The notes: generated from the sequence alone by a model not told the origin. DNA of 34,131 nt from Nitrospira japonica (GCA_020725385.1 DYFC01000047.1:1-34131); one strand, 5' to 3'. Counted from the stretch's first letter, positions 11,342 through 29,772 are shown. Numbers and translations: made by a program.

Positions 11342-11383
11342 CCTCTCTTTACACTCTTAGCTCTTAGCTATTCGCTCTTTGCT
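11342..11383 (-). repeat. Degenerate heptamer array, family A (AGAGCNN on mRNA)
   Basis: About 5 units starting at the TAG stop of the 11382 gene. Confidence 0.7.
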
Positions 11384-12668
11384 AATTTTTGCCCGTATGG
11401 CATACTGTACATCCGTTAAATTCACCGCTCGCTGGCCAGCCTTTATAATCCCATCTCATAATTTTTGAATATGGTGAACCATGCGCTCTATGACATGAAA
11501 GACACATAACAAGGTCAGTTCCGAGTCTCACTGTGGCATCAGGAGTAGTCCATCCATTAAGTGTGGGTCTCGCAACAGGAACTCGGGGATCATAAGTTCC
11601 AGTACCTCCGGTTGCATTATACGCACTTGCAAACTCACCGGAATTAGGAATCACAGCATCAGATGGATGTCTGATCCATGCATTTGATGTTGATTGTTCT
11701 ATATGAAAATTACCATGACATCCTGTACAATAGGCAGTCATGGTATTTCCAAGTGCAGAAAAACCACCTGCGCTTGTTTTTGTTCCAGAATAGCCTAAAT
11801 ATTCATTATGAACAGTACTACTTGCATCGTGTTGCCAGTTTACATCTATAAGTCCGGTTACGCCATGACCCGAACCACTTTGATGGCCTGAAAGAAACCT
11901 GAACCAGCCATCGGATGTGCTATTTTTTAATGGATCCGTATCATTAATATGATGATAACCTTTTGGAAAATCAGTTCCCACCATATGACATTTTGTGCAT
12001 CCTTGTCTTGCACCCGGGAACCCGAACGATGGCGGGCTTGTACTGGCGTATAAATTTTTGTGACATGCATTTACACCTCCGCATGTTCCTCCACCAACAT
12101 CTCCAGGAGCAGAAGACAGATTATCATCTCCATTTCCTAAAAAAACATTATGACCTTTTGTATCATTTTCAGAGCTTGCAACTCCTGTAGAGACCCAATA
12201 GAAATTACCGCCTGATAAAGGATTTGCAGGATAGCCTGTTGTATTAAATACAATTGGGACTTTTTGCCCCCCTGGCAAAGTTTTTATCGTCTCGCCATCT
12301 GTTGAACTGTGACAGCCAAGACAGGTAGCATTTAACAGAGTTTCATTAGGAGTATTTAGAGTTCCCGAGCCTCCCCATGGGGTATCACCACGATTCATAG
12401 CCTGTCCATTTTGACTGTTGTGCATTGTATGACAATTAACACAGGGACCGGTAACTTTTGCATAAAGCGCTGTTGTAAAAATCAAAGAAGAAATTATAAA
12501 AAACAAAAAACCTAGTTTACCTGGTTTACTTAGTTTACTCAGTTTATCGAGTTGGAATATCTGAACAATTATTTTCAACCATGTAAACAGTGTAAACTGA
12601 GTAAACTGAGTAAACTGGGTAAACAATGTTAACTGTGTAACTTTTTTTATTTGAGTTGATTTTTTCAT
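11382..12668 (-). CDS. OmcS-like multiheme cytochrome (6 CxxCH + 1 CX5CH)
   Basis: CVNCHTMHNS, GGNF, KGHNV, APG, RHPSD, CLSCHRAH and terminal CTVCH follow OmcS motif order. Confidence 0.85.
   Translation of the reverse strand: MKKSTQIKKVTQLTLFTQFTQFTQFTLFTWLKIIVQIFQLDKLSKLSKPGKLGFLFFIISSLIFTTALYAKVTGPCVNCHTMHNSQNGQAMNRGDTPWGGSGTLNTPNETLLNATCLGCHSSTDGETIKTLPGGQKVPIVFNTTGYPANPLSGGNFYWVSTGVASSENDTKGHNVFLGNGDDNLSSAPGDVGGGTCGGVNACHKNLYASTSPPSFGFPGARQGCTKCHMVGTDFPKGYHHINDTDPLKNSTSDGWFRFLSGHQSGSGHGVTGLIDVNWQHDASSTVHNEYLGYSGTKTSAGGFSALGNTMTAYCTGCHGNFHIEQSTSNAWIRHPSDAVIPNSGEFASAYNATGGTGTYDPRVPVARPTLNGWTTPDATVRLGTDLVMCLSCHRAHGSPYSKIMRWDYKGWPASGEFNGCTVCHTGKN
12511..12643. repeat. Inverted nonamer arrays, family B (GTTTACNNN / GTAAACNNN), inside signal-peptide coding region
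   Basis: Encodes TQFTQFTQF and LSKLSKPGK. Confidence 0.85.
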
Positions 12669-12669
12669 A

Positions 12670-12714
12670 CTCTATGCCCTTTGCTCTTTGCTCTTCGCTC
12701 TATGCTCTTCGCTT
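12670..12714 (-). repeat. Heptamer array, family A
   Basis: About 6 units filling the whole gap between stop 12717 and ATG 12668. Confidence 0.85.
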
Positions 12715-12716
12715 TA

Positions 12717-14006
12717 TTACCTTTTATGGCATTGAATACATAGTTGCCTTTTTCTATCAAAATAAAGCATAAACTCTGCTTTAGCTGAATGCATACTGTG
12801 ACATGTAAGGCAGGTTAAAGGTTTCCCGTCTCTTGGGTCTTTTGTGTCTTTTCCAAGTGGATGGGTTACCTTATGCTGCCCTTCATGACATCTTGCACAT
12901 GATAAAATTTCATCGGATTTTAAATATAATCTGTTCTCAGAGTGAGGAGGAATATGACACTGAAAACATTTTCTATCTTTTACCGGAGTGCACCTTATTT
13001 TTTTCAAAGCTTTTTCCATAAGAATAGTCTTCTTTTCGGTATTCTCATGACAGCTTGAACATACTTCTGTTTCTCTTGCTGTTAGATTCTTATCTTGTGA
13101 AGCGTGTTGACTGTGACACATTAGACATTCTGCCTTTTCCTTTATTAAATGTTTGTCATTTGCTTTTAAAACAAATTTATCTTTTTTATGGCAACTGAGA
13201 CATAAGTCTGTAACCTTCATTTTTACCGAGACGTTCTTATCAGTAGCAAAAGGATTGTGGCATTGTTCACACTTCATATCAAGAAATTCTTTATGTCCGT
13301 ATGGTCCAAGTAATCCTTTTTTATCAGAAGCATGACCGCTGTGGCACGAAGTGCATTTCATATTTTGAGTATATTGATTTATGGAAACGCCATTTATTGA
13401 GCACTTAACTGGATGGCATTTCACACAAATTTTAGTTGATGAATCAACAAGCTGGTTTTCTGTAGAAGATGCATGTGGCTCATGACATGACGCACATTCT
13501 CCGTTCTTAAACGGTTTGTGCACTACTACCTTTTTAAATTGTTCCTGTAAAGACTCATGGCACATCCAGCATAATTTTTCCTGCTCTTTTATAAGAAGAT
13601 GCTTAATAGCTCCACTATGTGCATAATGGCAATCCGTGCATAGACCTCTTTTTAAAACATGATGAACATATTTATTTTTTAGTGAATTCCTTATTTTTTC
13701 ATGGCATCCGAGACAAAGCTTATTTATGTCTTCTTTAATTAATCCTTTTATATCTCCTGAATGAGAATTATGACAGGAATTACATTTGCCTTCTTTAAAA
13801 GGTGAATGAACAACCGGATCAGAGAGTTTATCTCTCATTTTTATATGACATTGATAGCATAAAGCCGGCACACTGGCTTTTAAATCGCCTTGTTCAGCAA
13901 AAACAAAACCACCCCAGGTCAAAATAATTGAGGTTATGGCTAAGATTAAGATTCTAAATCCTGAACTGTGGACTTTGAACTTTGAACTTTGAACTTTTTT
14001 ATTCAT
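12717..14006 (-). CDS. 16-heme c-type cytochrome (doubled CXXCH type)
   Basis: 16 CxxCH counted; signal peptide; AGGAG before ATG 14006, overlapping upstream stop. Confidence 0.92.
   Translation of the reverse strand: MNKKVQSSKFKVHSSGFRILILAITSIILTWGGFVFAEQGDLKASVPALCYQCHIKMRDKLSDPVVHSPFKEGKCNSCHNSHSGDIKGLIKEDINKLCLGCHEKIRNSLKNKYVHHVLKRGLCTDCHYAHSGAIKHLLIKEQEKLCWMCHESLQEQFKKVVVHKPFKNGECASCHEPHASSTENQLVDSSTKICVKCHPVKCSINGVSINQYTQNMKCTSCHSGHASDKKGLLGPYGHKEFLDMKCEQCHNPFATDKNVSVKMKVTDLCLSCHKKDKFVLKANDKHLIKEKAECLMCHSQHASQDKNLTARETEVCSSCHENTEKKTILMEKALKKIRCTPVKDRKCFQCHIPPHSENRLYLKSDEILSCARCHEGQHKVTHPLGKDTKDPRDGKPLTCLTCHSMHSAKAEFMLYFDRKRQLCIQCHKR
13962..13996 (-). repeat. Heptamer array, family C (AAGTTCA), in signal-peptide n-region
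   Basis: AAGTTCA x3, AAGTCCA, CAGTTCA encoding KVQSSKFKVHSS. Confidence 0.75.
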
Positions 14007-15948
14007 GGCAACTCCTGCAATCTCCTTTTGCAAAAGGAGCATGTTTTATATTTCTTAATAACCCTGGCTTTTCTGTAACATGAGGTTCATGACATGGCAG
14101 ACATTTTGTTATTCTGCTTATAGGTTTTAAATGAACTTTTAATAGAGTATTACTATCAGCAGAGTGGCATTTTGTACATAATAACGGATCTTTTTCATTT
14201 AAAAGATGAATAATATTTGAATAATGAGGTTTATGACAACTTAGACAATCACCTGAATCAAAAGCAATATGTCCTTTTCTTAAATTTGTTTTAACAATTC
14301 TTTCATGACATGATAAACACAATTCTTTTGGCTTATTTAAAAGTAGCTTTCCTGTTTTTGTTAAATGAGGATTATGGCATGATGTACACTTCCCTTCTTC
14401 CACAGGAAGATGTTTTTCGCTTAATTGTTTAATCTCTGTTTCCATATTTTTATGACAGCTATAACATAAATCAGTCATTGTATTTTTAGTATTTGCAACA
14501 AATTCACTTGCATGGGGGTCATGACATATCAGACAGGATTTTTTCTGAAATGGTTTATGCATTGTAACTTCTTTTGAATCTGAAAACATTGCTTCATGAC
14601 ACTTAGTGCAAATTTGTTCATTTGAAACATCAAGAAGGTTTCTATATTGTGATGAATGAGGTTTATGACATGACATACACTTCTTATTGTTAACAGGTGT
14701 GTGTATATATGTTTTGAAAAATTCTTTTTCTTCTTTCTTGTGACATGTATAGCACAAATCAGTTGCTGCTACTTTTAATATCCCTTTTGTATTTGTACCA
14801 TGAGGGTCATGGCATTTCTGGCATTCTGCTTTTGAAAATGGTATATGCAGATTGCCGTCTTTTAACTCCTTTTCAGTGTTTACATGGCAACCAAAGCAAA
14901 GATTTTTCTGCTGGGATTTTAAATAGAATTGATTCTGTGATGAATGTGGATTATGACATACTGTACAACCCTTTTCTTTCACAGGTTTGTGCTGTACAGA
15001 GACTTTAAGAATATCGGTCTTTTTCTTATGGCATGTAAAACATAGAACATTGGTAGATTTTAGTATTATTTTATTATAATCTGACGCATGAGGATTATGA
15101 CATTCAAGGCATTTTCCTTCGTCAAGAGGTTTATGACGGTAAGCTTGCTTAAAAGACATTTCTTCTTTCTTATGACAGTTGTAGCAAAGTGTTACACCCT
15201 TTACTTGTAAATCAAGCGGGTTAGGATCACTTGATTTTTTATGGCAGGAAGAACATTCTCCTTTTTTCATAGGACTATGCACTGACATTTTAAGAAGTTT
15301 ATTATCAGAAGAGCTATGGGGTGTATGGCATTCTGTGCATCTTCCTTTTTCAACAGGATAACCTTTATGTGAATTTTTAAAACTTTCCTTAGAAAAATCA
15401 TGGCAGGTTTTGCATAATTCAACTTCCTTTTTTATAAGATTCTGACCGAATTCAGAACTATGAGGATCGTGACAGATAAGACATCCATCTGATAATGGTT
15501 TATGTTGCACTTTACGTATAAAAGCATCTTTCTTATGGCACTGGAAACATTGTTCATTTCCTGTTTTTCTTAAAAGATACTTATTATCAGATGCATGAGG
15601 GTGATGGCATGGTGTGCATTTACCCTGTTTTAAAGCTGAATGAACTGAAACCTTTTTAAGTACGCGTGTTTCAAAATCTTTATGACAGAGGATACATAAT
15701 TTTTTTTGCTCTCTTTCTTTAAGGCTTAATACTGCAATTTTTCCATGTCTGTTATGACACGCTTCACAGTCTTTTTTTGCCATTGGTTCATGAATATACT
15801 TTTTCTGGTATTCAGGCAAAGTTTTTGTATGGCAATCAAGACAGGGTTTTGCGACAAAGCCTTTTCTTCTTGGTTCGGTTGTAGTACAGGTATAAACAAA
15901 GCATAATAATAATATTAAAAATAACTTTGGTATATGACTTTTTTGCAT
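13999..15948 (-). CDS. 26-heme c-type cytochrome, probable lipoprotein
   Basis: 26 CxxCH counted with HxP distal ligands; signal ending VYTC. Confidence 0.93.
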   Translation of the reverse strand: MQKSHIPKLFLILLLCFVYTCTTTEPRRKGFVAKPCLDCHTKTLPEYQKKYIHEPMAKKDCEACHNRHGKIAVLSLKEREQKKLCILCHKDFETRVLKKVSVHSALKQGKCTPCHHPHASDNKYLLRKTGNEQCFQCHKKDAFIRKVQHKPLSDGCLICHDPHSSEFGQNLIKKEVELCKTCHDFSKESFKNSHKGYPVEKGRCTECHTPHSSSDNKLLKMSVHSPMKKGECSSCHKKSSDPNPLDLQVKGVTLCYNCHKKEEMSFKQAYRHKPLDEGKCLECHNPHASDYNKIILKSTNVLCFTCHKKKTDILKVSVQHKPVKEKGCTVCHNPHSSQNQFYLKSQQKNLCFGCHVNTEKELKDGNLHIPFSKAECQKCHDPHGTNTKGILKVAATDLCYTCHKKEEKEFFKTYIHTPVNNKKCMSCHKPHSSQYRNLLDVSNEQICTKCHEAMFSDSKEVTMHKPFQKKSCLICHDPHASEFVANTKNTMTDLCYSCHKNMETEIKQLSEKHLPVEEGKCTSCHNPHLTKTGKLLLNKPKELCLSCHERIVKTNLRKGHIAFDSGDCLSCHKPHYSNIIHLLNEKDPLLCTKCHSADSNTLLKVHLKPISRITKCLPCHEPHVTEKPGLLRNIKHAPFAKGDCRSCHE

Positions 15949-17679: not shown

Positions 17680-17790
17680 CCTACTTAGTTTGCCTTGTTT
17701 ACTAAGTTTGCTCTGTTTACATTGTTAAAATAGTTTAAGGTATTACAACTCGATAAACTATGTAAACCGAGTAAACTGTGTAACCGGGTT
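17680..17790. repeat. Inverted nonamer arrays, family B, intergenic
   Basis: GTTT(A/G)C arm and GTAAAC arm with about 20-nt spacer, starting at stop 17789. Confidence 0.8.
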
Positions 17791-18868
17791 ATTTCCATTT
17801 TGCTTTTTCCATATCTTTTACAAGTTTCTTAACAATTTTGTAAGCAGTGTTTTCAACTGACCTTATTCTTCCCCAATCAAGCATAAAAATATCATCATCG
17901 CCCTTGACATAATATGTCTCGCACCAGATCACTTTATTCTTTCTTGCATCAATTAACCTTGCAGAAATCTCTGCTTCAGGAGCAATATCTGTACCAGAAC
18001 CACTGCGATACATATCAACAGAACCAACAAGCACTCCATCAATCCCTGCTTTTGCAGCTATTTCACTAACATGATTCAAGTCCAGTTCCCCTTTTTCTCT
18101 TACCCTTAAATCAACTATTAAACGTTTCACTTCTCCATATTCAATAGGAAGATATTTTTTGCTCTTAAATAACTCTGTCAAAAACATAAATGTTGTTATA
18201 TTTCCTGAATCTTTAACTTTGCTCATATTTTGAAAAGGCATTACAGCTATCTTGTAAACATCCTCTGTCTCTTTCTTTGGGAATAATGTTGAGAAAGACT
18301 TTAAGGCTCTGTTTATTATTTTGTCTGCCAGCTTTTCAATTGAGTTTATTTTTCCGATTTCAAGAATTCCGGCAAAATCATCGCCGGTTCCAGCAGAATG
18401 TTCGGCCCACATAACTGAGCCATCTGAGGTACTTATAAGTCTCATGGTTAATCCGAATTGAGGATTATCACTTTTGTTATAAGTATTTATTGTCCCGGTA
18501 AGAATAGCCTTTACATTTAATTCTTTGCCCATTTTTATAGCTATATCCTGGCATACACAACCAGTTGTTCTGATTCTCTCTTTGATCATAAAATTATTCA
18601 TACTTTCATCATCGAGAATCTCATATCCTTTTGATATTAGTTTATCCTTTAAAATGGGTATTGTTATTTTAATTGCCTCTTTATCTTCGCTAAAATTCTC
18701 AAAAGGAAATATAGCAATTTTAAATTTCTGAGATGGAAGATCAGCACAAACTTTAGAATATAAAGCGAAGAGCAGAGAGCATATAGCAAAAAATATAAAG
18801 TATTTTGCTCTTCGCTCTTTGCTCTTCGCTCTCGGCTCTTTGCTCTCGGCTCTTTGCTCTTTGCTCAT
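17789..18868 (-). CDS. Two-domain CsgG/DUF799-like envelope protein
   Basis: Two repeats of IA(I/V)xPFxN...G...RLI...W; signal peptide built from heptamer repeats. Confidence 0.7.
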   Translation of the reverse strand: MSKEQRAESKEPRAKSKERRAKYFIFFAICSLLFALYSKVCADLPSQKFKIAIFPFENFSEDKEAIKITIPILKDKLISKGYEILDDESMNNFMIKERIRTTGCVCQDIAIKMGKELNVKAILTGTINTYNKSDNPQFGLTMRLISTSDGSVMWAEHSAGTGDDFAGILEIGKINSIEKLADKIINRALKSFSTLFPKKETEDVYKIAVMPFQNMSKVKDSGNITTFMFLTELFKSKKYLPIEYGEVKRLIVDLRVREKGELDLNHVSEIAAKAGIDGVLVGSVDMYRSGSGTDIAPEAEISARLIDARKNKVIWCETYYVKGDDDIFMLDWGRIRSVENTAYKIVKKLVKDMEKAKWK

Positions 18869-18952
18869 TGCTCTACGCTCTTCGCTCTTTGCTCATGGCT
18901 CTTTGCTCTATGCTCTTTGCTTTTCGCTCTATGCTCTTTGCTCTTCGCTCTT
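18761..18952. repeat. Inverted heptamer arrays, family A
   Basis: About 21 units of AGAGCNN (mRNA) from stop 18952 through ATG 18868, then short complementary arm 18761-18790. Confidence 0.92.
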
Positions 18953-19527
18953 TAATATTTATACAGCGTATGCACAGCATCCCTTACAACATGAAGAACT
19001 GTTTCACTCAGTGTTTCTGCTTTTGCTCCGAAGTGTTTAACCATGAAACCTGCGCCACCTCTTGTTCTTGTAGCAGACCAGATAATGCTTCCAGAACCTG
19101 TATCAGCCATCATTAAAGTTATAGTTACTTCTGGAGCAGATACATTTCCTTCTCTTACCTCTCCATATTTATTAACTGCTCCAAGAATAACTGCCTGAAC
19201 ATTCAGTGTCTTACCTATAGATTTTATTTGCTCGGCATTAAGAGACTGAATATTTTTAATTTTCATGCTATCAAGAGCAGCTACAGCATCTCCGGGAGGT
19301 GATACCTCAACAAGTCCAGTTGCAAGAAGTTCGCTTATTACAACATGCCTGACAGCGTCGGCAGCAAATCTGTCACTCGTAAGATTATCCAGTGGTAAAA
19401 CCGCCACACGTTTTATATAGCTAAAATCAATATCCTGATTAATATAAAAGTCAGGATTCGCCTTGCCTCCGCAACCACAAATAATTAATAACACGCTTAA
19501 TAAAAATAATTGTTTTAAGTATCTCAT
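18952..19527 (-). CDS. CsgG/DUF799 (GNA1162-like) lipoprotein
   Basis: Lipobox ICGC; IKRVAVLPLDNL...AVILGAV...PEVTITL...IIWS. Confidence 0.75.
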   Translation of the reverse strand: MRYLKQLFLLSVLLIICGCGGKANPDFYINQDIDFSYIKRVAVLPLDNLTSDRFAADAVRHVVISELLATGLVEVSPPGDAVAALDSMKIKNIQSLNAEQIKSIGKTLNVQAVILGAVNKYGEVREGNVSAPEVTITLMMADTGSGSIIWSATRTRGGAGFMVKHFGAKAETLSETVLHVVRDAVHTLYKY

Positions 19528-19550
19528 ATCTTTATACCTCTCATCAAAAA

Positions 19551-19650
19551 CAGTTTACTCCGTTTACCCTGTTTACTTGGTTTACTTGGTTAAAACCGTT
19601 CGAACTGTGCAAACTATGTAAACCATGTAAACTAAGTAGACCGTGTAAGC
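19551..19650. repeat. Inverted nonamer arrays, family B, intergenic
   Basis: GTTTAC x4-5 then GTAAAC-like x5, starting at stop 19650. Confidence 0.85.
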
Positions 19651-20378
19651 TAAAATATTGTTTTAATAGCATCTTTTACGACTTCTCCTGCTGTTTCGCT
19701 CAATGTTTTACCTTCAGAACCAAAGTGTCTCATCCAGAAATTTGGACCTTCAGAAGTTTTTCTTATTGACCAGAGGACATTTCCTGTTGATGTTTCTATA
19801 AGTCTTAGATTTATAGTTACTTCAGGATAATTAATATTAACACCCCTTGAAATACCATAATATTCAACAGAACCGGTCATTACAGCGTCAGAGCCTGTTG
19901 AAGTTCCTATTTCTTTAATATCGGAGAGCTTTATCATGCTGATTGATTTTATTTTCATGTCTTTAATCAATCTCGAAACCTCTCCCGGTTCGACAACCTC
20001 TATCCCTCGTGATATTATTTCTGCTATAACTATTCTCCTGATTTTTTCTCCAGCTATTTCTTCTGTAGAAAAATTCTCAAATGGTAAAACAGCTATCTTT
20101 TTAATATTTTTAATATCAGTATCAGACCTTACATAGTGCTTCTGAGTCCCGCAACCATATACGAAAACAATGAACAAGCAAAGAGCAGAGAGCAGAGAGT
20201 ATAGAGCAAATCCCCCCCCGCTCCCGGCTCTTTGTTCTTTGCTCCCGGCTCTTTGTTCTTTGCTCCCGGCTCTTTGTTCTTTGCTCCCGGCTCTTTGCTC
20301 TTTGCTCTTTGTTCTTTGCTCTTTGCTCTTTGCTCTTTGCTCTCGGCTCTTTGCTGCTTTTATTACCAGAACCTGCAT
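19650..20378 (-). CDS. CsgG/DUF799 (GNA1162-like) lipoprotein
   Basis: Lipobox VYGC; paralog of 18952-19527; N-terminus of SKEQRAG repeats. Confidence 0.75.
   Translation of the reverse strand: MQVLVIKAAKSREQRAKSKEQRTKSKEQRAGSKEQRAGSKEQRAGSKEQRAGSGGGFALYSLLSALCLFIVFVYGCGTQKHYVRSDTDIKNIKKIAVLPFENFSTEEIAGEKIRRIVIAEIISRGIEVVEPGEVSRLIKDMKIKSISMIKLSDIKEIGTSTGSDAVMTGSVEYYGISRGVNINYPEVTINLRLIETSTGNVLWSIRKTSEGPNFWMRHFGSEGKTLSETAGEVVKDAIKTIF
20176..20355. repeat. Inverted heptamer arrays, family A, including 21-bp perfect repeats
   Basis: GCTCCCGGCTCTTTGTTCTTT x3 plus 1 variant at 20220-20303; complementary arm 20176-20210; C8 run between arms. Confidence 0.92.
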
Positions 20379-22813
20379 GTAAGGTTTCCTCCGATGTTAT
20401 ATGTTTCTTTTTTTACGTCTTCTTTATCATATGTGTAAGAATAATTAAGCTGTAATTCAAGAAATTTTGTTATATACCAGATTAAATAAGTACTTATGTT
20501 ATGCAATATTCTTGATTTCTCTTCCATAAAATTATGTTGATAAGATGCATTCATTCTAACAGCGGGCAGGAAAAGCCAGTCAATCATAATTCCTTCAGAG
20601 GAATTTGTATCTCCATCTGAATCAGTAACTTTCATTGTTCCAGATATACTGAAAAATCTACCCGGACGATAGGTTAAAATAAAACCGCCGTCCATTAGAT
20701 CCGAAGATGTAGCTCCTGTTGTTCTACTATATCCATATGAAAGGTTTGTAGATATTTTTGCAGTAAGCCGTGCATCAATTGTTCCTCTGATATATCTCAC
20801 CTTGGTGGTTAAATCTTCAGTGGGAGTATATGAAGTATAAGAAGATGAAGGATTTTCAATAGCATACGTTTTTGTTTGAGTATAACCAAAATCAGTTATC
20901 ATATTAACATCTCTGTGTAATTTTGAACCAATTGTTAGAAGATAAAGGTCATTCAATGATTGCTTTTCACTGAAGGTATAGCTAATTGTCCTTATAAACG
21001 ATAGATTAGCATCAAGAGTTAATAATGGAGTATAACTGAAGTTTATGCCATATGTATCCGACATAATATCAGATTCCTTTTTATTATCAAAAGATTCATT
21101 CTTCTGATAGCGCAAGGTTGTTGTCAAAGGTCTGAACATCTGCCATGAAACATGCCCTCCATATGACCTATTTACATTTATTCTAAGCTTTTTGTCTAAT
21201 TCAATTTCTGGCTTGCTAAATAAATTCTCAAAAGCTCCACCTGTTGCTTCAAAGAAAGATTCGGGTTCCTGATCTGTACGGTTAAGGAAATAGTTCAAAG
21301 AAAGGGTTACAGTTCTAACCGGTTTTATAACTGTTCCAAGACTTACTCCATTTGATATATAAGTGATAGTATCGGTTATTTTTCCTGTTACAGGTACAAT
21401 TTCAGTGCCAGAAGCTTCTATTTCTGTAACCAGAACATCAGATATAGAAGCTGTGTTTAGAGTAACAATTTTAAAATAAAGAGCCTTCTGAGGGCTTATA
21501 AATTTTATCTTGTACATATAAATATCATTTAATTGCTCTCTTTTATAGTCAGTTTCAACAGGCTGAATCTCCACCTTTGACCATGAACCTATCATATTTG
21601 AATCACTTCTATATACTTCAATATCAGTAATTGTTCCTTGAAGATTAGTTTCTGTACGAACATCTTTATTTACATAAAGAATAATTTTATTTACAGTATC
21701 CGTATTTGAGATAAGATGCACTCCTATATTTTGATTTCTATTTCCATTGAAACCGATATTAATAGTCCCTGATGATGTAGAAATAGGAGTAATATAATTT
21801 TTATCTATAAGCCCTGCAGCAGGATTCAGTGTATCAGCAGAAGGCTGGGTATCTGTGCCTGATGCATAAAGCCCCTCCTGGGCATATCTTAATTTGTCTA
21901 TTTCTGTTCCTGCAGGAGCAAAAGTCTGATTTTTATTTTTGACATAATTTCCCTGTAGTCCTGCTGTTATGCTGAAATTATTTCTAAAAAAAGTAGGATT
22001 GAAATTGATAGAATATGAAGCATTAAAACTATCATTTATTGTTTTAGTCGTAGAAGAGGTAGGAGTTTTCATTTCATCTCTGGTATATGTAAGATTATAA
22101 GAAAACTTAGCTGCTCTATAATTATAGTCATACCATGTACTTCCGGCATATTTGGTATTTGTGCTATCAAGAACTTTTGGCGAAAGATGATCGTAATCTT
22201 TTTGATAGTCTGCCTGTAGAGATAATGAAGGAAGGTTTTTGGGCTGTAGATTAAATCTTGAATAATAATATTCTGTTGTTCTTCTTTCATCATTCGAAAG
22301 GCTTGCTGAATTCCATTGTTCAAGTCTTCTTGTCCCTAAATCAAAACGATAAAGAGGATTCTGCAAGAATATATCAAGAGCAGGTTCTATAGCTCTAAGA
22401 TAATTACTTGTCTTATTGCCTTTTTCATCTTTCGTATGGCTGTCATTTAAGGTTGACCTGAGATATAACTGGTAAGAGATTAAAGGGGTAACTGATTTAT
22501 CAAGCCTGAAATAGTAATTCTGTAAAAAACTGTTTGATGATTCTGTCCTTGAACCATCTTCATATTGTTTTGTATCAGTATAATTAAAATTAAACCACGC
22601 AGATGGCCCCTCGGCATATGCATTTGAAAAAGCAAAGAGCGAAGAGCAAAGAGCGAAGAGCAGAGAGCAGAGAGCAATAAGAAAAAAGTTAACACGGTTT
22701 ACATGGGTTACATAGTTTACTCTGTTTACATGGTTTATACGGTTTAAACCGAGTAAACAAAGTAAACTGTGTAAACTAAGTAAACTGAGTGAACTTTTTT
22801 TCTTATAACCCAT
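20363..22813 (-). CDS. Large outer-membrane beta-barrel protein with inserted soluble domain
   Basis: Signal ending AYA, alternating aromatic beta-strands, C-terminal aromatic (RFW). Confidence 0.75.
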   Translation of the reverse strand: MGYKKKSSLSLLSLHSLLCLLGLNRINHVNRVNYVTHVNRVNFFLIALCSLLFALCSSLFAFSNAYAEGPSAWFNFNYTDTKQYEDGSRTESSNSFLQNYYFRLDKSVTPLISYQLYLRSTLNDSHTKDEKGNKTSNYLRAIEPALDIFLQNPLYRFDLGTRRLEQWNSASLSNDERRTTEYYYSRFNLQPKNLPSLSLQADYQKDYDHLSPKVLDSTNTKYAGSTWYDYNYRAAKFSYNLTYTRDEMKTPTSSTTKTINDSFNASYSINFNPTFFRNNFSITAGLQGNYVKNKNQTFAPAGTEIDKLRYAQEGLYASGTDTQPSADTLNPAAGLIDKNYITPISTSSGTINIGFNGNRNQNIGVHLISNTDTVNKIILYVNKDVRTETNLQGTITDIEVYRSDSNMIGSWSKVEIQPVETDYKREQLNDIYMYKIKFISPQKALYFKIVTLNTASISDVLVTEIEASGTEIVPVTGKITDTITYISNGVSLGTVIKPVRTVTLSLNYFLNRTDQEPESFFEATGGAFENLFSKPEIELDKKLRINVNRSYGGHVSWQMFRPLTTTLRYQKNESFDNKKESDIMSDTYGINFSYTPLLTLDANLSFIRTISYTFSEKQSLNDLYLLTIGSKLHRDVNMITDFGYTQTKTYAIENPSSSYTSYTPTEDLTTKVRYIRGTIDARLTAKISTNLSYGYSRTTGATSSDLMDGGFILTYRPGRFFSISGTMKVTDSDGDTNSSEGIMIDWLFLPAVRMNASYQHNFMEEKSRILHNISTYLIWYITKFLELQLNYSYTYDKEDVKKETYNIGGNLTCRFW
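22628..22795. repeat. Nonamer inverted arrays (22688-22795) plus heptamer array (22628-22677) forming the barrel signal peptide
   Basis: Encodes SLLSLHSLL / NHVNRVNYV / ALCSLLFALCS. Confidence 0.88.
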
Positions 22814-22890
22814 ACCTTTAAGAAAACTTCCTCCTTAAATATTCAAGTCCCTCAACCCCCTTTTTTGTTTCCTTATGTCATTTCAACTTT

Positions 22891-22960
22891 GTAAACCGGG
22901 CAAACTATGTAAACTATGTAAACTAAGCAAACCGTGTAAACTATGTTAACTGTGTTGACT
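22891..22960. repeat. Nonamer array, family B, single arm
   Basis: About 8 units GTAAACYRN directly after stop 22962. Confidence 0.85.
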
Positions 22961-22961
22961 T

Positions 22962-24716
22962 TCAATAAGGAAACATTGCTATACCGTATGGATTTTTACC
23001 AACTGGTATAACCTTTTCTTCAGATATAGTTGTTTTATCAACAACAGTAACAGAGTCATCTCCTCTGTTGACTGTATATATTTTTCTGCCTTCAGGATCC
23101 ATGATAAAAGATTTTGGTGAAGTTCCAACCTGAATATTTGCAATTACTGGCGATACAGTTGTTCTTGCTGCACTGAATGCTTCTGAAAAAGGCCTGATTA
23201 CCGTGATTTCTGATGGATATTCTTTTAGCAAATAAAAGCGGTCAATATCAGGGTCTGGAATTATGCCTGTTACCTTAGTTCCAACATTTGCTATCTCGCT
23301 GACAACACCGCTTTCATATCCTTTTGCTATAAGAACTATGTCGATAACTGACAGGTTGTCATAATTATAATTTCCAACATAAACTTTTCCACGCTGATAA
23401 TCAACTGCAAGGGTAACCGGAGACCATTGAACCGGAAGTAAAAAGATTTTTTCAGGCTTTAATTTTTGAGAATCCATTTTAATTAAAGTCACATCTTTTG
23501 AATTTTTGTTTGCAACATAAACATTAAAGTATTTATCCCTATAATTTCTAAGTGAATTAAAATCCTCGAAACTCAAGAATCTTGTCTGCTGTAAAATATC
23601 CAAAGGCGGATCCGCGACAATATATACAGGATTATTTCCTGTGTTTATCTTGTCAATCTCCTGATAAGTTGCACTGTCAACAACAGAGACATTATCCGAA
23701 CCATAATTGGCAATAAAAAGAAGTTCCCTCTCAGGAGATATTTTTGCAACTGTAATGCTCTCGGGTGAATTTCCAAAACGTAACGGAATTTCGGTTTCAA
23801 CCTTATGCGTGGTTGGATTTATAACAGAAACACTTCCAGAAACTGAATTTACAACATAAACTCTTGGTTTTTCTCTGATCTGACTGACTGCAATACCTCT
23901 TGGTTTTTTGCCAACCATAATATTTGCAACTACATCATCTGTCTGCCTGTTAATAACAGAAACATTATTGGAATCTTCATTTGTAACATATATAAGAAGA
24001 CTGCTTAATTCAGGTGATTGCGTCTTTAAAGAAAATATCGGATTAAACTGGAAACCATCTCTAATAGAATTATCTGAATTCCATGTTAAAAATAAAGGAG
24101 AGCTTTGATTTCTTATGACATTTAAATCAATATCTAATGTCAACCATTCAGATGGGATTGAAAGACTCGCTGTCCTGCCCTCTTTCTTTAATATTGCATC
24201 TTTTATCTTGAATTGAAGCTTTTTGTATCTTCCTTGAGGAATATTAACCTCGCCTAAAATTATCTGTTTGTTAGATAAAGAAATTGAATTTATCTTTAAT
24301 GGCTTTGAAGACACTTCCTTTGGTTCATTGTTTTCAGAAACTATTTGTATTGATTGAATCTCAAAAGTTATGTCAGTTGATACTTTTTCAGTGCCTTTAA
24401 GATAAATAATTACCTGTCCATCAGATATTCCACCTGATGTTATATGTTCCTTAACAGAAGAACAGCCAAAAGGCAAGCAGAGAGCGAAGAGCAAAGAGCA
24501 AAAAGCTAAGAGCATAGAGCGGAGAGCTGAGAGAAAAGGACGGGGAGCAAAAAGCAAAGAGCGTAGAGCGTAGAGCGTAGAGCAAAGAGCATAGAGCATA
24601 GAGCTTAGAGCGAAGAGCAAAGAGCGAATTTCACTAAACACAACTCTATAACCATTGGAAAAAATCCAAATGTTTAGTCCTGCAATTTTTTTATAAAACC
24701 GCTTATCATTCGACAT
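22962..24716 (-). CDS. Lipoprotein with DUF4382-like N-domain and YVTN beta-propeller
   Basis: YVTNEDSNNVSVI, YVVNSVSG, FIANYGSDNVSVVD, PVGKNPYGI; lipobox PFGC; start uncertain. Confidence 0.82.
   Translation of the reverse strand: MSNDKRFYKKIAGLNIWIFSNGYRVVFSEIRSLLFALSSMLYALCSTLYALRSLLFAPRPFLSALRSMLLAFCSLLFALCLPFGCSSVKEHITSGGISDGQVIIYLKGTEKVSTDITFEIQSIQIVSENNEPKEVSSKPLKINSISLSNKQIILGEVNIPQGRYKKLQFKIKDAILKKEGRTASLSIPSEWLTLDIDLNVIRNQSSPLFLTWNSDNSIRDGFQFNPIFSLKTQSPELSSLLIYVTNEDSNNVSVINRQTDDVVANIMVGKKPRGIAVSQIREKPRVYVVNSVSGSVSVINPTTHKVETEIPLRFGNSPESITVAKISPERELLFIANYGSDNVSVVDSATYQEIDKINTGNNPVYIVADPPLDILQQTRFLSFEDFNSLRNYRDKYFNVYVANKNSKDVTLIKMDSQKLKPEKIFLLPVQWSPVTLAVDYQRGKVYVGNYNYDNLSVIDIVLIAKGYESGVVSEIANVGTKVTGIIPDPDIDRFYLLKEYPSEITVIRPFSEAFSAARTTVSPVIANIQVGTSPKSFIMDPEGRKIYTVNRGDDSVTVVDKTTISEEKVIPVGKNPYGIAMFPY
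24474..24628. repeat. Heptamer array, family A (NNGCTCT on mRNA), downstream arm
   Basis: About 20 units encoding SLLFALSSMLYALCS... Confidence 0.9.
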
Positions 24717-25027
24717 AATTCCTCAAGTTCCAACAATACCTTTTCTTTGACATTGTTTTGTATATATTTCCTTTTTTCAAAAATAATCATCATATTTGCG
24801 TTTTCAAAACATGATCTTTTAGCAATATTTAAAAATTTAATAAAATCCTTCCTTGAATTACTTCCCGATCCTTCAGCAATATTATTCGAGATTGACAGAG
24901 CAGCTCCTCTTAGCTGTTCAGCAAATCTATATAACTTTTTATCTTCGATATCATCTGAAATATCAAACAATTCTTCTGCAATATCAATTGATTTCTTCCA
25001 TATGTCTAAGTTCTCAAACCTAAACAT
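24674..25027 (-). CDS. Four-helix-bundle protein (23S rRNA IVS protein family, Avd-like fold)
   Basis: FENLDIWKKS...QLRGAALSISNNIAEGSG...FIKFLNIAKRSCFE...MISGFI signature. Confidence 0.92.
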   Translation of the reverse strand: MFRFENLDIWKKSIDIAEELFDISDDIEDKKLYRFAEQLRGAALSISNNIAEGSGSNSRKDFIKFLNIAKRSCFENANMMIIFEKRKYIQNNVKEKVLLELEELCRMISGFIKKLQD

Positions 25028-25028
25028 T

Positions 25029-25088
25029 TCTCTTTGCTCTCCGCTCTAAGCTCTATGCTCTTAGGTCTTTGCTCTTCGCTCTTTGCTC
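25029..25088. repeat. Heptamer array, family A (AGAGCNN on mRNA), upstream arm
   Basis: About 8 units filling the gap from stop 25087 to ATG 25027. Confidence 0.9.
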
Positions 25089-26183: not shown

Positions 26184-26243
26184 CAAACTGTTTTAACTGA
26201 CTTAACCATGTAAACTGTGTAAACCAAGTAAACTATGTAAACT
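26184..26243. repeat. Nonamer array, family B, single arm
   Basis: GTAAACTGT GTAAACCAA GTAAACTAT GTAAACT plus degenerate units. Confidence 0.8.
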
Positions 26244-26259
26244 TTTTAGATGGTTTACA

Positions 26260-27466: not shown

Positions 27467-27506
27467 CAACCGTGTAAACTGTGTAAACTAAGTAAACTAT
27501 GTAAAT
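27467..27506. repeat. Nonamer array, family B, in 5' leader
   Basis: GTAAACTGT GTAAACTAA GTAAACTAT GTAAAT. Confidence 0.8.
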
Positions 27507-27523
27507 TGTCTAATTTATATAAA

Positions 27524-27727: not shown

Positions 27728-28186
27728 ATGATAGAATCGAAAGAACTAAAGAAAAATTCCAATGAGATTAAACAAATAAGAAAAATTCTTTCGAGTTTAA
27801 TAAAAACTAAGGAATACCTACTTGTTGTTTATTTATTTGGTTCTTTTGCAAAGAATTCAGAAAATGAAAAGTCAGATATAGATTTAGCTTTTGTTTTTAA
27901 TGAAAAATTTTATAAAGAAGACCCTTTTAGAGCCTTACAGGAAGCTGAACTATTAGGAGCAGAGATAAATAAAAAGACAAATAAAGCGGTAGATGTAGTA
28001 GTTCTCAATGGCGCTTCTTTAAATTTTGCATATCATGTTGTAAGAGAAGGAATTCCCATTTATGAAAAGAGAGTTGTTGAGAGAATTATCTATGAAGTAA
28101 ATTTAGATAATAAGTATCAAGATTTTATACCTTTTATTAAAGAACTAAGGGAATTAAAGAAGGGAAGTCTTATTGGAAGAGATTAA
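27728..28186 (+). CDS. mntA: MNT antitoxin (minimal nucleotidyltransferase), type VII TA
   Basis: YLFGSFAKNSENEKSDIDLA (GS-X10-DXD); TGATATAAT ends 7 nt before ATG, probably leaderless. Confidence 0.88.
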   Translation: MIESKELKKNSNEIKQIRKILSSLIKTKEYLLVVYLFGSFAKNSENEKSDIDLAFVFNEKFYKEDPFRALQEAELLGAEINKKTNKAVDVVVLNGASLNFAYHVVREGIPIYEKRVVERIIYEVNLDNKYQDFIPFIKELRELKKGSLIGRD

Positions 28187-28598
28187 TGCAAAAATCGCTG
28201 TTGTTCAGGAAAGAATAAGAAGGTTATCAAACTTTTCAAGTCTTTCTTTTGAATCTTATCTTAAAGATTTAACAGTCAGAGATGCTATAGAAAGGAATAT
28301 TGAGGTTGCTATTCAAGCATGTATTGATATTGCCAGAATAATAATCAAAAGGGAAAGATTAAGGGAACCTGAAGATAATAAAGGTGTATTTGTTGTTCTT
28401 GCTGAAAATAATTATATTAGTGAAAAATCTTTGAAATTTCTTATCCCAATGGCTGGCACGCGTAATGTTCTTGTTCATGGCTATGATAAAATTGACGACT
28501 CAATTATTTTTGGTGTATTAAAAAAACATTTATCAGATTTTAACTTATTTATAAAAGATATTGAAGAAAGATATTTAATTAAAAAAACTGGTGATTAG
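28173..28598 (+). CDS. hepT: HEPN RNase toxin (DUF86), type VII TA
   Basis: AIERNIEVAIQACIDI and RNVLVHGY (RX4HXY); overlaps mntA. Confidence 0.88.
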   Translation: MEEINAKIAVVQERIRRLSNFSSLSFESYLKDLTVRDAIERNIEVAIQACIDIARIIIKRERLREPEDNKGVFVVLAENNYISEKSLKFLIPMAGTRNVLVHGYDKIDDSIIFGVLKKHLSDFNLFIKDIEERYLIKKTGD

Positions 28599-28611: not shown

Positions 28612-29772
28612 TTATTTTTTTGTATGACAGAAGAGGCAGCCTTTTTTATCCTTGCTTCCTGCTCCAGCCTCTGAATAATCCCATCTAAGTATATCAGGAT
28701 ATGGGCTTGCATGGGCTCTATGGCATGAAAGACACATTATAATGCTGTCTGAATCCACTGTATTTTCGTTACCTGTTGGATTCTGATAGGCAACTGGAGA
28801 TTCAAGACTGTAATTCACATATCCCTGATATTCTGAACCCGCATAACCTCCATGAACACCGCTGAATGATATGTCAGAGGGATGCCTTCTCCAGAGAGAA
28901 TTATATGCATGACCAACTTCTTTACTTCCCCCGAGATTAGGATTCGGATGAAACTTTCCATGACATTCTCCGCATAAATAACTTATTGTGTTCATTGAAT
29001 CATGTGTCTGATCTCCCTTATAGCCGTTATGTTCCGATTCACTCGCAAGATATTCCCAATCTTTATGTTCTTTTCCAACAATTCCATAAAGAAATCTATA
29101 ACTTTTTCCAACTGTTGAACCATCAATGGTACTGTCATCTTCATGATGTGCTCCATGCATTGCCCCAAATTCATCTTCAATGGTTCTATTGCCATGGCAT
29201 CCATACATACCAGAACATGAAAGCTGTTTGTACGAAGGCCAGTTAGAAGGTCCTGTTCCGCCCGGAATATTTACACTTTCAAGAAAACCCGGCGGAGTAT
29301 TCATTGGAGGACTTTCAATTAAAGATATTCCTTTAACATTATGTCCTTTTGAATAATCAGGATTAAACGGGTCGGCTACATAATAATAATTTCCACCAGC
29401 AAGATCTCCACTCTCCATGTGATGAATAACCTGTGGAACTCTCATTTTTCCTTTTTTAATAATATTTTCTGTGCCAGATGGGCTTTGACCATGACAGCCG
29501 AGACAACCGCCTATAGTCATAGACGGAAAAGGCCCTTTTTGATAAGCATATGTAACTTCTGCTCCTTCTTTGCTATAGTGCATTGAATGACAATCCTTGC
29601 ATTTCCCTTTAACACGAGCATCAACAACAGAAACAAAACAGCAAAGAGCAAAGAGCATTGAGCATAAAACATAAAGCGTAGAGTTTAGAGCGTAGAGCTT
29701 AGAGTCTTTGCTCTTCGCTCTTTGCTCTTTGCTCTTCGCTAATTTTATTTTCCCATATGACATATCAAACAT
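28612..29772 (-). CDS. OmcS-like hexaheme cytochrome (5 CxxCH + CX5CH)
   Basis: CKDCHSMH, GGNY, KGHNV, CSGMYGCH, RHPSD, CLSCHRAH, CLFCH; start 29772 or 29763. Confidence 0.85.
   Translation of the reverse strand: MFDMSYGKIKLAKSKEQRAKSKDSKLYALNSTLYVLCSMLFALCCFVSVVDARVKGKCKDCHSMHYSKEGAEVTYAYQKGPFPSMTIGGCLGCHGQSPSGTENIIKKGKMRVPQVIHHMESGDLAGGNYYYVADPFNPDYSKGHNVKGISLIESPPMNTPPGFLESVNIPGGTGPSNWPSYKQLSCSGMYGCHGNRTIEDEFGAMHGAHHEDDSTIDGSTVGKSYRFLYGIVGKEHKDWEYLASESEHNGYKGDQTHDSMNTISYLCGECHGKFHPNPNLGGSKEVGHAYNSLWRRHPSDISFSGVHGGYAGSEYQGYVNYSLESPVAYQNPTGNENTVDSDSIIMCLSCHRAHASPYPDILRWDYSEAGAGSKDKKGCLFCHTKK
29640..29740. repeat. Inverted heptamer arrays, family A, forming the signal peptide
   Basis: Encodes AKSKEQRAKSK then LYALNSTLYVLCSMLFALC. 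Confidence 0.85.

Follow-up and report, generated by a model that had tools for sequence, protein, structure and literature searches.

Degenerate heptamer repeat arrays lie at the starts of five genes for exported proteins in a 34,131-nucleotide stretch of Nitrospira japonica DNA (GCA_020725385.1 DYFC01000047.1:1-34131; "the window" denotes this whole stretch), and this observation is confirmed here. We consider it probable that the arrays are lineage-wide, stop-free heptamer repeats which, placed between start codon and mature domain and translated there, have been tolerated and co-opted as signal peptides. The case is built on the anatomy of the arrays, the conservation of the start codons, the continuity of the reading frames, the absence of alternative starts and the restriction of the arrays to 5′ gene boundaries across genera, all of which are read directly from the DNA.

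The window is contig C45 of a draft genome (G000; 2.46 Mb, 71 contigs, 34.7% G+C). Its minus strand carries an operon of the extracellular-electron-transfer type, spanning 9.5-30.8 kb and encoding multihaem cytochromes (Paired_CXXCH), three LpoB/GNA1162-like lipoproteins, an 816-residue protein, a YVTN propeller lipoprotein, an NHL protein and a PPIase. Gene calls in G000 are crude longest-open-reading-frame (ORF) calls, and signal-peptide features were scored with a simple charge and hydropathy script (Kyte-Doolittle window).

Anatomy of the heptamer arrays

The array unit is a degenerate AGAGC followed by two variable bases (AGAGCNN, complement NNGCTCT), with 74-89% matches. Tandem Repeats Finder and a pattern search recovered arrays at the coordinates given by an earlier reading of this DNA (the original prediction) and at seven further places in the operon (Table 1). 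The 14-mer AGAGCAAAGAGCAA, with at most one mismatch, has 32 matches in the window against 0.05 expected, and none of 100 shuffles reached 32. Arrays or hairpins fill most of the gaps between the genes of the operon.

The arms form inverted pairs of 34-70 bases with 72-88% complementarity, namely: 88% for 20177-20210 with 20322-20355, 83% for 18755-18790 with 18902-18937, and 88% for 24566-24624 with 25030-25088. Folding is stronger than that of shuffled sequences (z = -2.8 for 20160-20400 and z = -3.7 for 18740-18965). The pairing of a purine with a pyrimidine arm described in the original prediction is real. It should be noted that both strands of such an inverted repeat give the same purine-then-pyrimidine order, that of a basic n-region followed by a hydrophobic h-region; the order is therefore inherent in the pair and independent of the direction of transcription. 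Terminator-like sites (6 against 3.9 expected) and promoter-like sites (30 against 28.4) are at chance level in the window, and the idea that the hairpins are intrinsic terminators was dropped on the former count. Rfam covariance models run at gathering thresholds over the whole window gave no match.

All six frames of the AGAGCNN/NNGCTCT family are free of stop codons, with K, R, S, E, Q and A encoded on the purine strand and L, F, A, C and S on the pyrimidine strand. The cycles RAKSKEQ (from AGAGCAA) and LLFALCS (from TTGCTCT) had been given correctly in the original prediction. The idea that an identical peptide in every frame is a special feature was rejected: since 3 and 7 share no factor, any 7-base unit yields one 7-residue cycle in all three frames, and only the absence of stops and the residue make-up are informative. 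Stop-freeness is itself common, as about 30% of heptamers are stop-free on both strands at the composition of G000.

Probable array-encoded N-termini of five genes

N-terminal boundaries were compared with the orthologous operons of 13-16 relatives. These alignments and a scan for start codons bear out the earlier claim that arrays form the N-termini of the genes starting at 18868, 20378 and 29772 (lipoA, lipoB and the cytochrome gene cyt28612; Table 1) and the h-regions of those starting at 22813 and 24716 (the outer-membrane-type gene and the YVTN gene): the start codons are kept in position, with arrays between start and mature domain.

If translation began at any later canonical in-frame start, lipoA, lipoB, the outer-membrane-type gene and cyt28612 would lose the combination of a charged n-region and an h-region. 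lipoA and the outer-membrane-type gene have a single canonical in-frame start each, inside or upstream of arrays. That of lipoA, ATG 18868, is the only one upstream of the conserved IAIFPFENF motif and lies within the purine arm, with in-frame stops upstream of it and MSKEQRAESKEPRAKSKERRAK encoded downstream. The only later in-frame start of lipoB in G000 would give MFIVFVYGC, which is too short for a signal. In the YVTN gene, the pyrimidine arm encodes the h-region whichever of the several start codons within the arm is used.

The lipoB ATG (20378) has GGAGG 9 bases upstream and overlaps the stop codon of the outer-membrane-type gene (ATGCAGGTTCTGGTAA). Among 16 orthologues, five keep a start codon there (ATG or GTG), and each of the five is in frame with the mature domain; the intervening sequence varies in length and kind and the frame remains continuous. 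In two others the position is CTG, in another frame, and a later ATG is used. The overlap of the cyt28612 ATG with the upstream gene is also present in the same-genus orthologue (77% identical), which is without arrays and has the signal peptide MSDMPFRKIRITLFIFFLFLVGLDCIPENVEA; in G000 a purine-pyrimidine pair is inserted after MFDMSYGKIK. Because no usable later start exists in four of the five genes and start positions are conserved, the arrays of the five genes are most likely translated, with the true starts upstream of or within them, as the original prediction required.

The script gave an n-region net charge of +3 to +5 for lipoA, the outer-membrane-type protein, the YVTN protein and cyt28612; for lipoB it cut no n-region, and the stretch before the h-region has 19 K/R against 7 E, counted by eye. 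The h-regions are hydrophobic runs of 17-22 residues. AYA/EGPS, VCA/DLP, VDA/RVK, VYG/C and PFG/C stand at the same alignment positions as the cleavage sites of the orthologues, with the lipoboxes VYG/C and PFG/C being non-canonical at position -2 or -3. The KVCA of lipoA is likely a signal peptidase I site, as judged from its sequence. From these features we infer that the array-encoded signal peptides direct export and are cleaved.

In the same-genus orthologues the signal peptides are short and free of heptamer arrays (MNSRNFLLLLFIIGLVIANAVYA, MERAVRNIVVGLIVLCLINTSAFA and MSDMPFRKIRITLFIFFLFLVGLDCIPENVEA), those of lipoA and the outer-membrane-type gene being ordinary signals of 23-24 residues, and the signals in G000 are thus recent replacements or expansions. 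Shorter versions of the same build occur at the same sites in other genera (lipoB of relative G023, MQTLVTEERRAKSKLKRALCFLLLALCLLLIFLDGC; lipoA of relative G022, VLRAKSKELSVKNSIFFVLCVLLLTLCSVLYAISSVYA). In addition, a lipoB orthologue in the public database (P0004, 57% identical) reads MQILV, about 6 x (AKSxEQR) and then LYALRSTLYALCFLLFFIQGC. A protein database search with lipoB residues 1-76 gave 13 matches, consisting of the query, one true orthologue and otherwise apparently unrelated low-complexity proteins (six inspected), and a related-locus search with the lipoB mature domain gave no match. The paralogous lipoprotein gene at 18952-19527, which has no heptamer array, serves as an internal control.

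It is very improbable that the arrays were mis-assembled or collapsed in a metagenome bin, leaving the frames unreliable. G000 is a draft of 71 contigs in which one array sits at a contig end (C41:137-353), but the same architecture recurs in other genera, whose genomes are independent of this one, and in a protein that was deposited separately, the frames are continuous through arrays of varying length, and parts of the stretch are found in 16 public runs from 11 studies, none of them listed as RNA.

Distribution of the arrays within and between genomes

AGAGC arrays of at least 3 units number 29 in G000, ten of them in the window contig. Of the other 19, none is N-terminal within a gene; each is intergenic, reaches a 3′ end or covers one of the short ORFs (285 and 330 bases) that were taken as spurious. 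By our own reading about 14 of these are purine-sense and 4 pyrimidine-sense, and several stop a few bases before the ATG of proteins that, judged from their N-terminal sequences, are apparently cytoplasmic or inner-membrane. Outside the window the longest AGAGC array is C41:137-353, with about 31 units and a 14-base sub-period. It is situated at the end of its contig and is followed by a gene about 230 bases downstream; such arrays are probably points at which assemblies break. Altogether G000 has 105 period-7 arrays. Intergenic DNA holds 56 of them, and the crude calls assign about 91% of the genome to ORFs. For the 44 intergenic arrays with a downstream gene, the distance to the start codon is at most 15 bases in 13 cases and at most 40 bases in 21.

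Eleven G000 ORFs of at least 150 residues carry a period 7-11 array within their first 80 codons. In seven of these ORFs the array has period 7, and all seven genes encode exported proteins, namely a TonB-type receptor, FlgI and five genes of the window operon. The comparison of exported with cytoplasmic proteins suggested in the original prediction thus went in its favour within G000. lipoA, whose array is mostly upstream of the ATG and so escaped the scan, is an eighth such gene and was found by other means.

The 150 bases before the mature domain were also scanned at 139 orthologous gene starts, which represent 13 gene families and up to 14 genomes. A period-7 signal was present at 26 of the 139, compared with 0/139 and 0/139 in two sets of mature-domain control windows; of the 26 arrays, the open frame contains 19 completely and 5 in part, and 2 are outside it. 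In other genera the h-regions are encoded by other pyrimidine-rich heptamers (CTTACTT, ATTTTAC, CTCTTTA, TTTACTG and CTTCTCA), and the stop-bearing heptamers TAATGAC, TGACCAA and ACTGATG remain upstream. At loci L033, L035, L038 and L042 of relatives, such stop-bearing units (ACTGATG/TAACTGA-like, TAATGAC, TGACCAA) immediately precede start codons in the corresponding operon gaps, and they agree with the type of repeat known from Beggiatoaceae and cyanobacteria. Four units in a row (AGAGCNN x4) were present in 9 of 41 close relatives and, in a sample across the phylum, in 20 of 301 genomes; a reversed control pattern almost always gave 0.

The specificity for signal peptides has a limit. Among nine array loci sampled in relatives, two are signal peptides, two are intergenic and five are in frame inside cytoplasmic proteins, i.e. 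two CobJ-type fusions, topoisomerase I, a LarC-like and a RecJ-like protein (loci L001, L002, L005, L007 and L010; relatives G036, G024, G014 and G017). These arrays consist of about four AGAGC-family units, AGAGCAC or complement-strand variants (L005). In the three that were aligned to G000 (topoisomerase I, LarC-like and RecJ-like), the array takes the place of a loop of nearly equal length. The earlier statement that mature domains are free of arrays therefore holds for the window and for G000 and fails in relatives. The repeats are thus a general, ORF-compatible sequence, for which signal peptides are the most tolerant home and not the purpose.

Translated signals, RNA elements or contingency loci

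Several points weigh against translated, signal-encoding arrays. An open frame through an array is no evidence, since the arrays are open in all frames by construction, and both translation and cleavage are deduced from sequence. The n-regions would be very long (21-55 residues), and the outer-membrane-type protein and cytochrome 11382-12668 would each have two hydrophobic stretches, which is topologically awkward. Neither lipoA nor the outer-membrane-type gene has a recognisable Shine-Dalgarno sequence, and the YVTN gene has several possible starts inside its array. In relative G019 the arrays of the outer-membrane gene sit upstream of a normal start, and the database protein P0010 resembles an ORF over-extended through such an array. 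Finally, the evidence stems mostly from a single operon and from orthologues that do not count as independent of it.

Some of these points also suit a different view, that the arrays are untranslated intercistronic RNA elements, i.e. hairpins for mRNA stability or processing, or regulator sites, with the listed starts being artefacts and the real, non-canonical starts lying downstream. The absence of N-terminal arrays among the 19 outside the window contig, the pairing ability of the arms, the occupation of most operon gaps by arrays or hairpins and the G019 arrangement are all in line with it, as is the close approach of 13 of 44 intergenic arrays to start codons, which resembles the TAACTGA repeats of Beggiatoaceae as these are described in PMC4679880. 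In four of the five genes, however, no canonical downstream start leaves a signal peptide, although the products must be exported, as implied by a lipobox Cys, CXXCH haem sites or an AYA/E cleavage site; in five of five cases the upstream start is both conserved and in frame, the only available h-regions are those encoded by the pyrimidine arms, and the arrays are neither terminator-like nor matched by an Rfam family. Untranslated elements of this sort explain most arrays genome-wide. For the five window genes we regard them as distinctly unlikely.

Another view, compatible with co-opted signal peptides, is that the arrays are phase-variable contingency loci, in which non-triplet repeats and a G8 tract slip and thereby switch surface or electron-transfer proteins, as do the CTCTT repeats of Neisseria opa. 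The arrays are indeed 7-base units in the 5′ coding region of exported or surface proteins, a G8 tract lies between the lipoB arms, array length and unit make-up vary between genomes, and the CTCTT repeats in the Opa leader-peptide region provide a precedent, going by the opa text of PMC3960869. Furthermore, in the cyt28612 orthologue of G023 (L037) our own reading of the DNA places a signal-peptide-like frame (MTTQLLFSLCALLCALCLFF...) out of frame with the mature domain. This out-of-frame signal is possibly a frameshift, a sequencing error or an "off" state. On the other hand, the arrays are degenerate: the long ones have 74-80% matches and the longest perfect run is four units (20316-20343), so slippage should be rare. 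The 21-base super-repeat at 20220-20343, which is the youngest layer of the lipoB purine arm, preserves the frame, its steps of 21 bases being the latest expansion, and the same repeats are common in untranslated gaps. We therefore judge switching by slippage to be unlikely, if somewhat less so than purely untranslated elements.

A proposed route from gap repeats to signal peptides

The reading that we favour, co-option of tolerated repeats, would run as follows. Short tandem repeats, mostly heptamers with some nonamers and octamers, would occupy intergenic gaps and 5′ leaders throughout Thermodesulfovibrionales-type Nitrospirota, with heptamer arrays arising and turning over in gene-boundary DNA. 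The AGAGCNN/NNGCTCT family is stop-free in six frames, and so its uptake into reading frames is possible. Arrays between conserved starts and mature domains would then be translated into Sec or lipoprotein signal peptides of unusual length, in which the purine arm extends the basic n-region and the pyrimidine arm gives part or all of the h-region. Signal peptides accept nearly any basic-then-hydrophobic sequence, so that they would be the only part of a gene's coding sequence in which repeats do no harm, and repeats would sometimes replace the ancestral signal outright. Signal-peptide DNA of a low-G+C genome is already purine-rich in the n-region (K/R) and pyrimidine-rich in the h-region (L/F/A), and the arms would therefore fit, or may even nucleate, there. 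The youngest expansion of lipoB, in 21-base steps, keeps the frame.

The original prediction had offered two explanations. Its first, a repeat tolerated since it mimics export signals, fits best, given that most arrays are intergenic, that those of relatives also occur in cytoplasmic proteins and that same-genus orthologues are array-free. Its second, a dedicated mechanism that generates and tunes signal peptides, is unsupported, as no such machinery was found; the accompanying suggestion that the 5′ end is buried in a hairpin fails for the gene at 20378, whose GGAGG and ATG lie outside both arms, and may hold for the gene at 18868.

PF05635 genes in repeat hairpins

Between the NHL and YVTN genes, a PF05635 gene forms the loop between heptamer arms (Table 1), and the YVTN pyrimidine arm doubles as the 3′ stem arm around it. 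The gene is missing at the same site in the 12 relatives compared. Eight PF05635 matches occur in G000, of which seven fall in called genes. When 2,171 genes were ranked by flanking inverted 9-mers, the top two places went to two of these seven. Inspection by eye shows inverted arrays of differing units around at least six of the eight matches. A survey covered 30 PF05635 loci (L044-L073), of which 2 belong to G000 and 28 to 17 relatives. Flanking inverted repeats of at least 24 bits were found at 13 of the 30 loci and at 0 of 52 shifted control positions. The flanking repeats are heptamer or octamer arrays, with a 7-8 base unit that differs from copy to copy.

23S rRNA intervening sequences carrying a PF05635 ORF are known from Leptospira, and they are alike in having a four-helix-bundle ORF in the loop of a long inverted-repeat stem. 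Here, by contrast, the stem arms are themselves short tandem repeats, and the loci are found outside rRNA, in mRNA operons, ordinary intergenic gaps and CRISPR regions. We found no report of repeat arrays flanking PF05635 genes in the literature searched, which left out most subscription journals.

Two of the G000 PF05635 genes lie within or beside CRISPR arrays (C29:42100-45900 and C4:10200-10750), in one case with genes read as those for Cas2, Cas1 and a free-standing reverse transcriptase at a distance of about 1-2 kb. As PF05635 is Avd-like, a diversity-generating retroelement, or a retroelement in general, was considered as the source of the arrays. It was rejected because the only reverse transcriptase gene of G000 (RVT_1) adjoins the Cas1/Cas2-like genes near a CRISPR array, away from the window and the arrays.

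These hairpins also allow for a more active role, in which they would be, instead of the passive residue of slippage, a structure-defined module of these genomes that overwrites local sequence and creates and diversifies export signals between genera. A PF05635 cassette might target hairpin loops in the manner of intervening sequences, or the protein might bind its own repeat; arrays would then replace coding patches of near-equal length (topoisomerase I, LarC-like, RecJ-like) and whole signal peptides (lipoA, YVTN). We give this possibility a small chance, on a par with phase variation. The link between PF05635 and repeat hairpins also gives a way into a widespread family for which no function is known.

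Nonamer arrays and other features of the operon

A second repeat family, of nonamers (GTTTACNNN followed by the complement NNNGTAAAC), forms inverted pairs in most of the other operon gaps. The nonamers are read through in the N-terminal extensions of the genes starting at 12668 and 22813, and the same family stands at the same gene boundaries in four relatives (G001, G014, G015 and G019). The 816-residue product of the gene at 20363-22813 had no match in family searches and is taken to be an outer-membrane barrel on the basis of its sequence. A plus-strand pair of ORFs overlapping by about 14 bases (27728-28598) interrupts the minus-strand cytochrome genes; they look like a candidate toxin-antitoxin pair of a nucleotidyltransferase and a HEPN-type (DUF86-like) protein.

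Table 1. Repeat arrays and associated genes of the window, with the PF05635 loci found elsewhere in G000 (contig numbers prefixed C).
Feature	Position	Strand	Remarks
Period-7 array	11354-11383		Tandem Repeats Finder
Inverted nonamer pair	12510-12640	-	inside 70-residue N-terminal extension of cytochrome 11382-12668
Purine arm, untranslated	12670-12717	-	ends 13 bases upstream of ATG 12668 of multihaem cytochrome 11382-12668; Tandem Repeats Finder, period 7: 12670-12713
Other heptamer, AAGTTCA, 5 units	13962-13997	-	encodes KKVQSSKFKVHSS in n-region of cytochrome 12717-14042
lipoA, double LpoB/FlgO-like exported protein	17789-18868	-	ORF and family searches
lipoA loop and short pyrimidine arm (18764-18790)	18761-18803	-	encode h-region YFIFFAICSLLFALYS, then KVCA
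lipoA purine arm (AGAGCNN), ~21 units	18804-18953	-	starts directly after stop of upstream lipoprotein gene; Tandem Repeats Finder, period 7: 21.4 copies, 78% matches
Paralogous lipoprotein gene	18952-19527	-	ordinary 19-residue signal peptide MRYLKQLFLLSVLLIICGC; GAGGT Shine-Dalgarno
Inverted nonamer pair, untranslated	19553-19653		gap upstream of 19527
lipoB, GNA1162/LpoB-like lipoprotein	19650-20378	-	ORF and family searches
lipoB pyrimidine arm	20177-20210	-	encodes FALYSLLSALC, first half of h-region before lipobox VYGC; Tandem Repeats Finder, period 7
lipoB G8 run (mRNA strand)	20212-20219	-	between arms; encodes GGG
21-base super-period in lipoB purine arm	20220-20343	-	Tandem Repeats Finder: 5.9 copies, 94% matches
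lipoB purine arm, ~19 units	20227-20360	-	encodes (KSKEQRA)-type n-region repeats; Tandem Repeats Finder, period 7: 19.0 copies, 75% matches
Outer-membrane-type gene	20363-22813	-	816 residues, ends ...CRFW; ATG 22813 is only canonical in-frame start
Pyrimidine arm of outer-membrane-type gene	22627-22677	-	encodes h-region FFLIALCSLLFALCSSLFAF before AYA/EGPS cleavage site; Tandem Repeats Finder, period 7
Inverted nonamer pair	22688-22795	-	inside long N-terminal extension of outer-membrane-type gene
DUF4382 + YVTN beta-propeller lipoprotein	22962-24716	-	candidate in-frame starts 24716, 24641, 24620, 24599, 24557, 24515
YVTN pyrimidine arm, ~21 units	24476-24628	-	encodes long hydrophobic N-terminus and lipobox region ..LFALCLPFGC; Tandem Repeats Finder, period 7: 24476-24625
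PF05635/TIGR02436 four-helix-bundle gene ("23S rRNA intervening sequence protein")	24674-25027	-	loop between heptamer arms
Purine arm, ~8 units	25030-25088	-	5′ stem arm, between NHL gene stop and PF05635 gene; Tandem Repeats Finder, period 7
Multihaem cytochrome c (cyt28612)	28612-29772	-	ATG overlaps end of upstream cytochrome gene
cyt28612 purine arm (29705-29740), then pyrimidine arm (29636-29704)	29636-29740	-	between conserved n-region MFDMSYGKIK and signal-peptide end; Tandem Repeats Finder, period 7: 29636-29657, 29675-29704, 29705-29740
Nonamer family sites	12510-12640, 17682-17783, 19553-19653, 22688-22960, 26185-26248, 27468-27513
PF05635 loci in G000	C29:54707-55183, C27:46731-47075, C4:10221-10589, C29:42519-42875, C31:122557-123000, C56:24648-24806

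Comparison with known repeat systems

Families of tandem heptamers in intergenic regions are known from cyanobacteria as STRR sequences. The TGACCAA unit seen in relatives is presumably the complement of the STRR2 unit, and we know of no coding role of STRR heptamers in signal peptides. The extended signal peptides of autotransporters share with the array genes a long extension at the N-terminus that precedes a normal n-h-c signal, and differ in that their extension is a conserved motif and is not repeat-encoded.

The nearest coding parallel is that of the opa genes, whose repeats, according to the opa text of PMC3960869, are likewise pyrimidine-rich, of a non-triplet unit, located in the region of the signal-peptide hydrophobic core and hydrophobic in every frame. 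The Opa repeats are perfect pentamers that switch the genes on and off and slip at rates that have been measured, whereas here the heptamers are degenerate, are paired with an inverted purine arm encoding the n-region and belong to an environmental bacterium. The arrays thus share with Opa-type loci a non-triplet unit inside the 5′ coding region and lack a perfect or near-perfect slippable tract.

Among non-coding repeats, TAACTGA direct heptamers occupy intergenic regions in Beggiatoaceae, cyanobacteria and Bacteroidetes (MacGregor 2015, PMC4679880). To the extent of that account, they too are tandem heptamers of patchy lineages, mostly intergenic and often a few bases upstream of start codons, and their stop-free orientation is tolerated only at ORF edges. 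Units such as ACTGATG, TAATGAC and TGACCAA fill the same gaps in the relatives studied here. The same account has them almost all direct and not tied to export signals, whereas here there are inverted pairs, signal peptides and many coexisting unit families. It also cites a description of heptamer-rich long simple sequence repeats (Mrazek 2007, as cited in PMC4679880). The arrays of G000 are of this class, with head-to-tail copies beyond chance (up to 21 units in the window), a mainly intergenic location and a patchy, lineage-restricted occurrence. The hmw genes of Haemophilus influenzae have heptamer repeats in the 5′ untranslated region, with RNase III processing (PMC12721329). In what that paper says of them, the hmw repeats are alike in being heptamer arrays in the structured 5′ leader of a surface-protein gene, and differ in being untranslated, perfect and proven drivers of phase variation.

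Literature searches, with most subscription journals and supplements outside their scope, found no description of signal peptides encoded by inverted repeat arrays, and none of heptamer repeats in Thermodesulfovibrio-type bacteria.

Significance for Nitrospirota and for signal peptides

If co-option is the right reading, these genes would be a natural case of functional protein sequence, up to whole signal peptides, made from non-coding repeat DNA, with the inverted form of the repeat supplying the basic-then-hydrophobic order for free. This would bear on the origin of new signal peptides and on the tolerance of the Sec and lipoprotein pathways for long repetitive leaders. It also matters for the annotation of gene starts in Nitrospirota bins, where gene callers may trim or over-extend array-bearing genes. 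Should the arrays slip, the electron-transfer-type operon of an environmental bacterium would be under contingency-locus control, a mode so far known mainly from pathogens.

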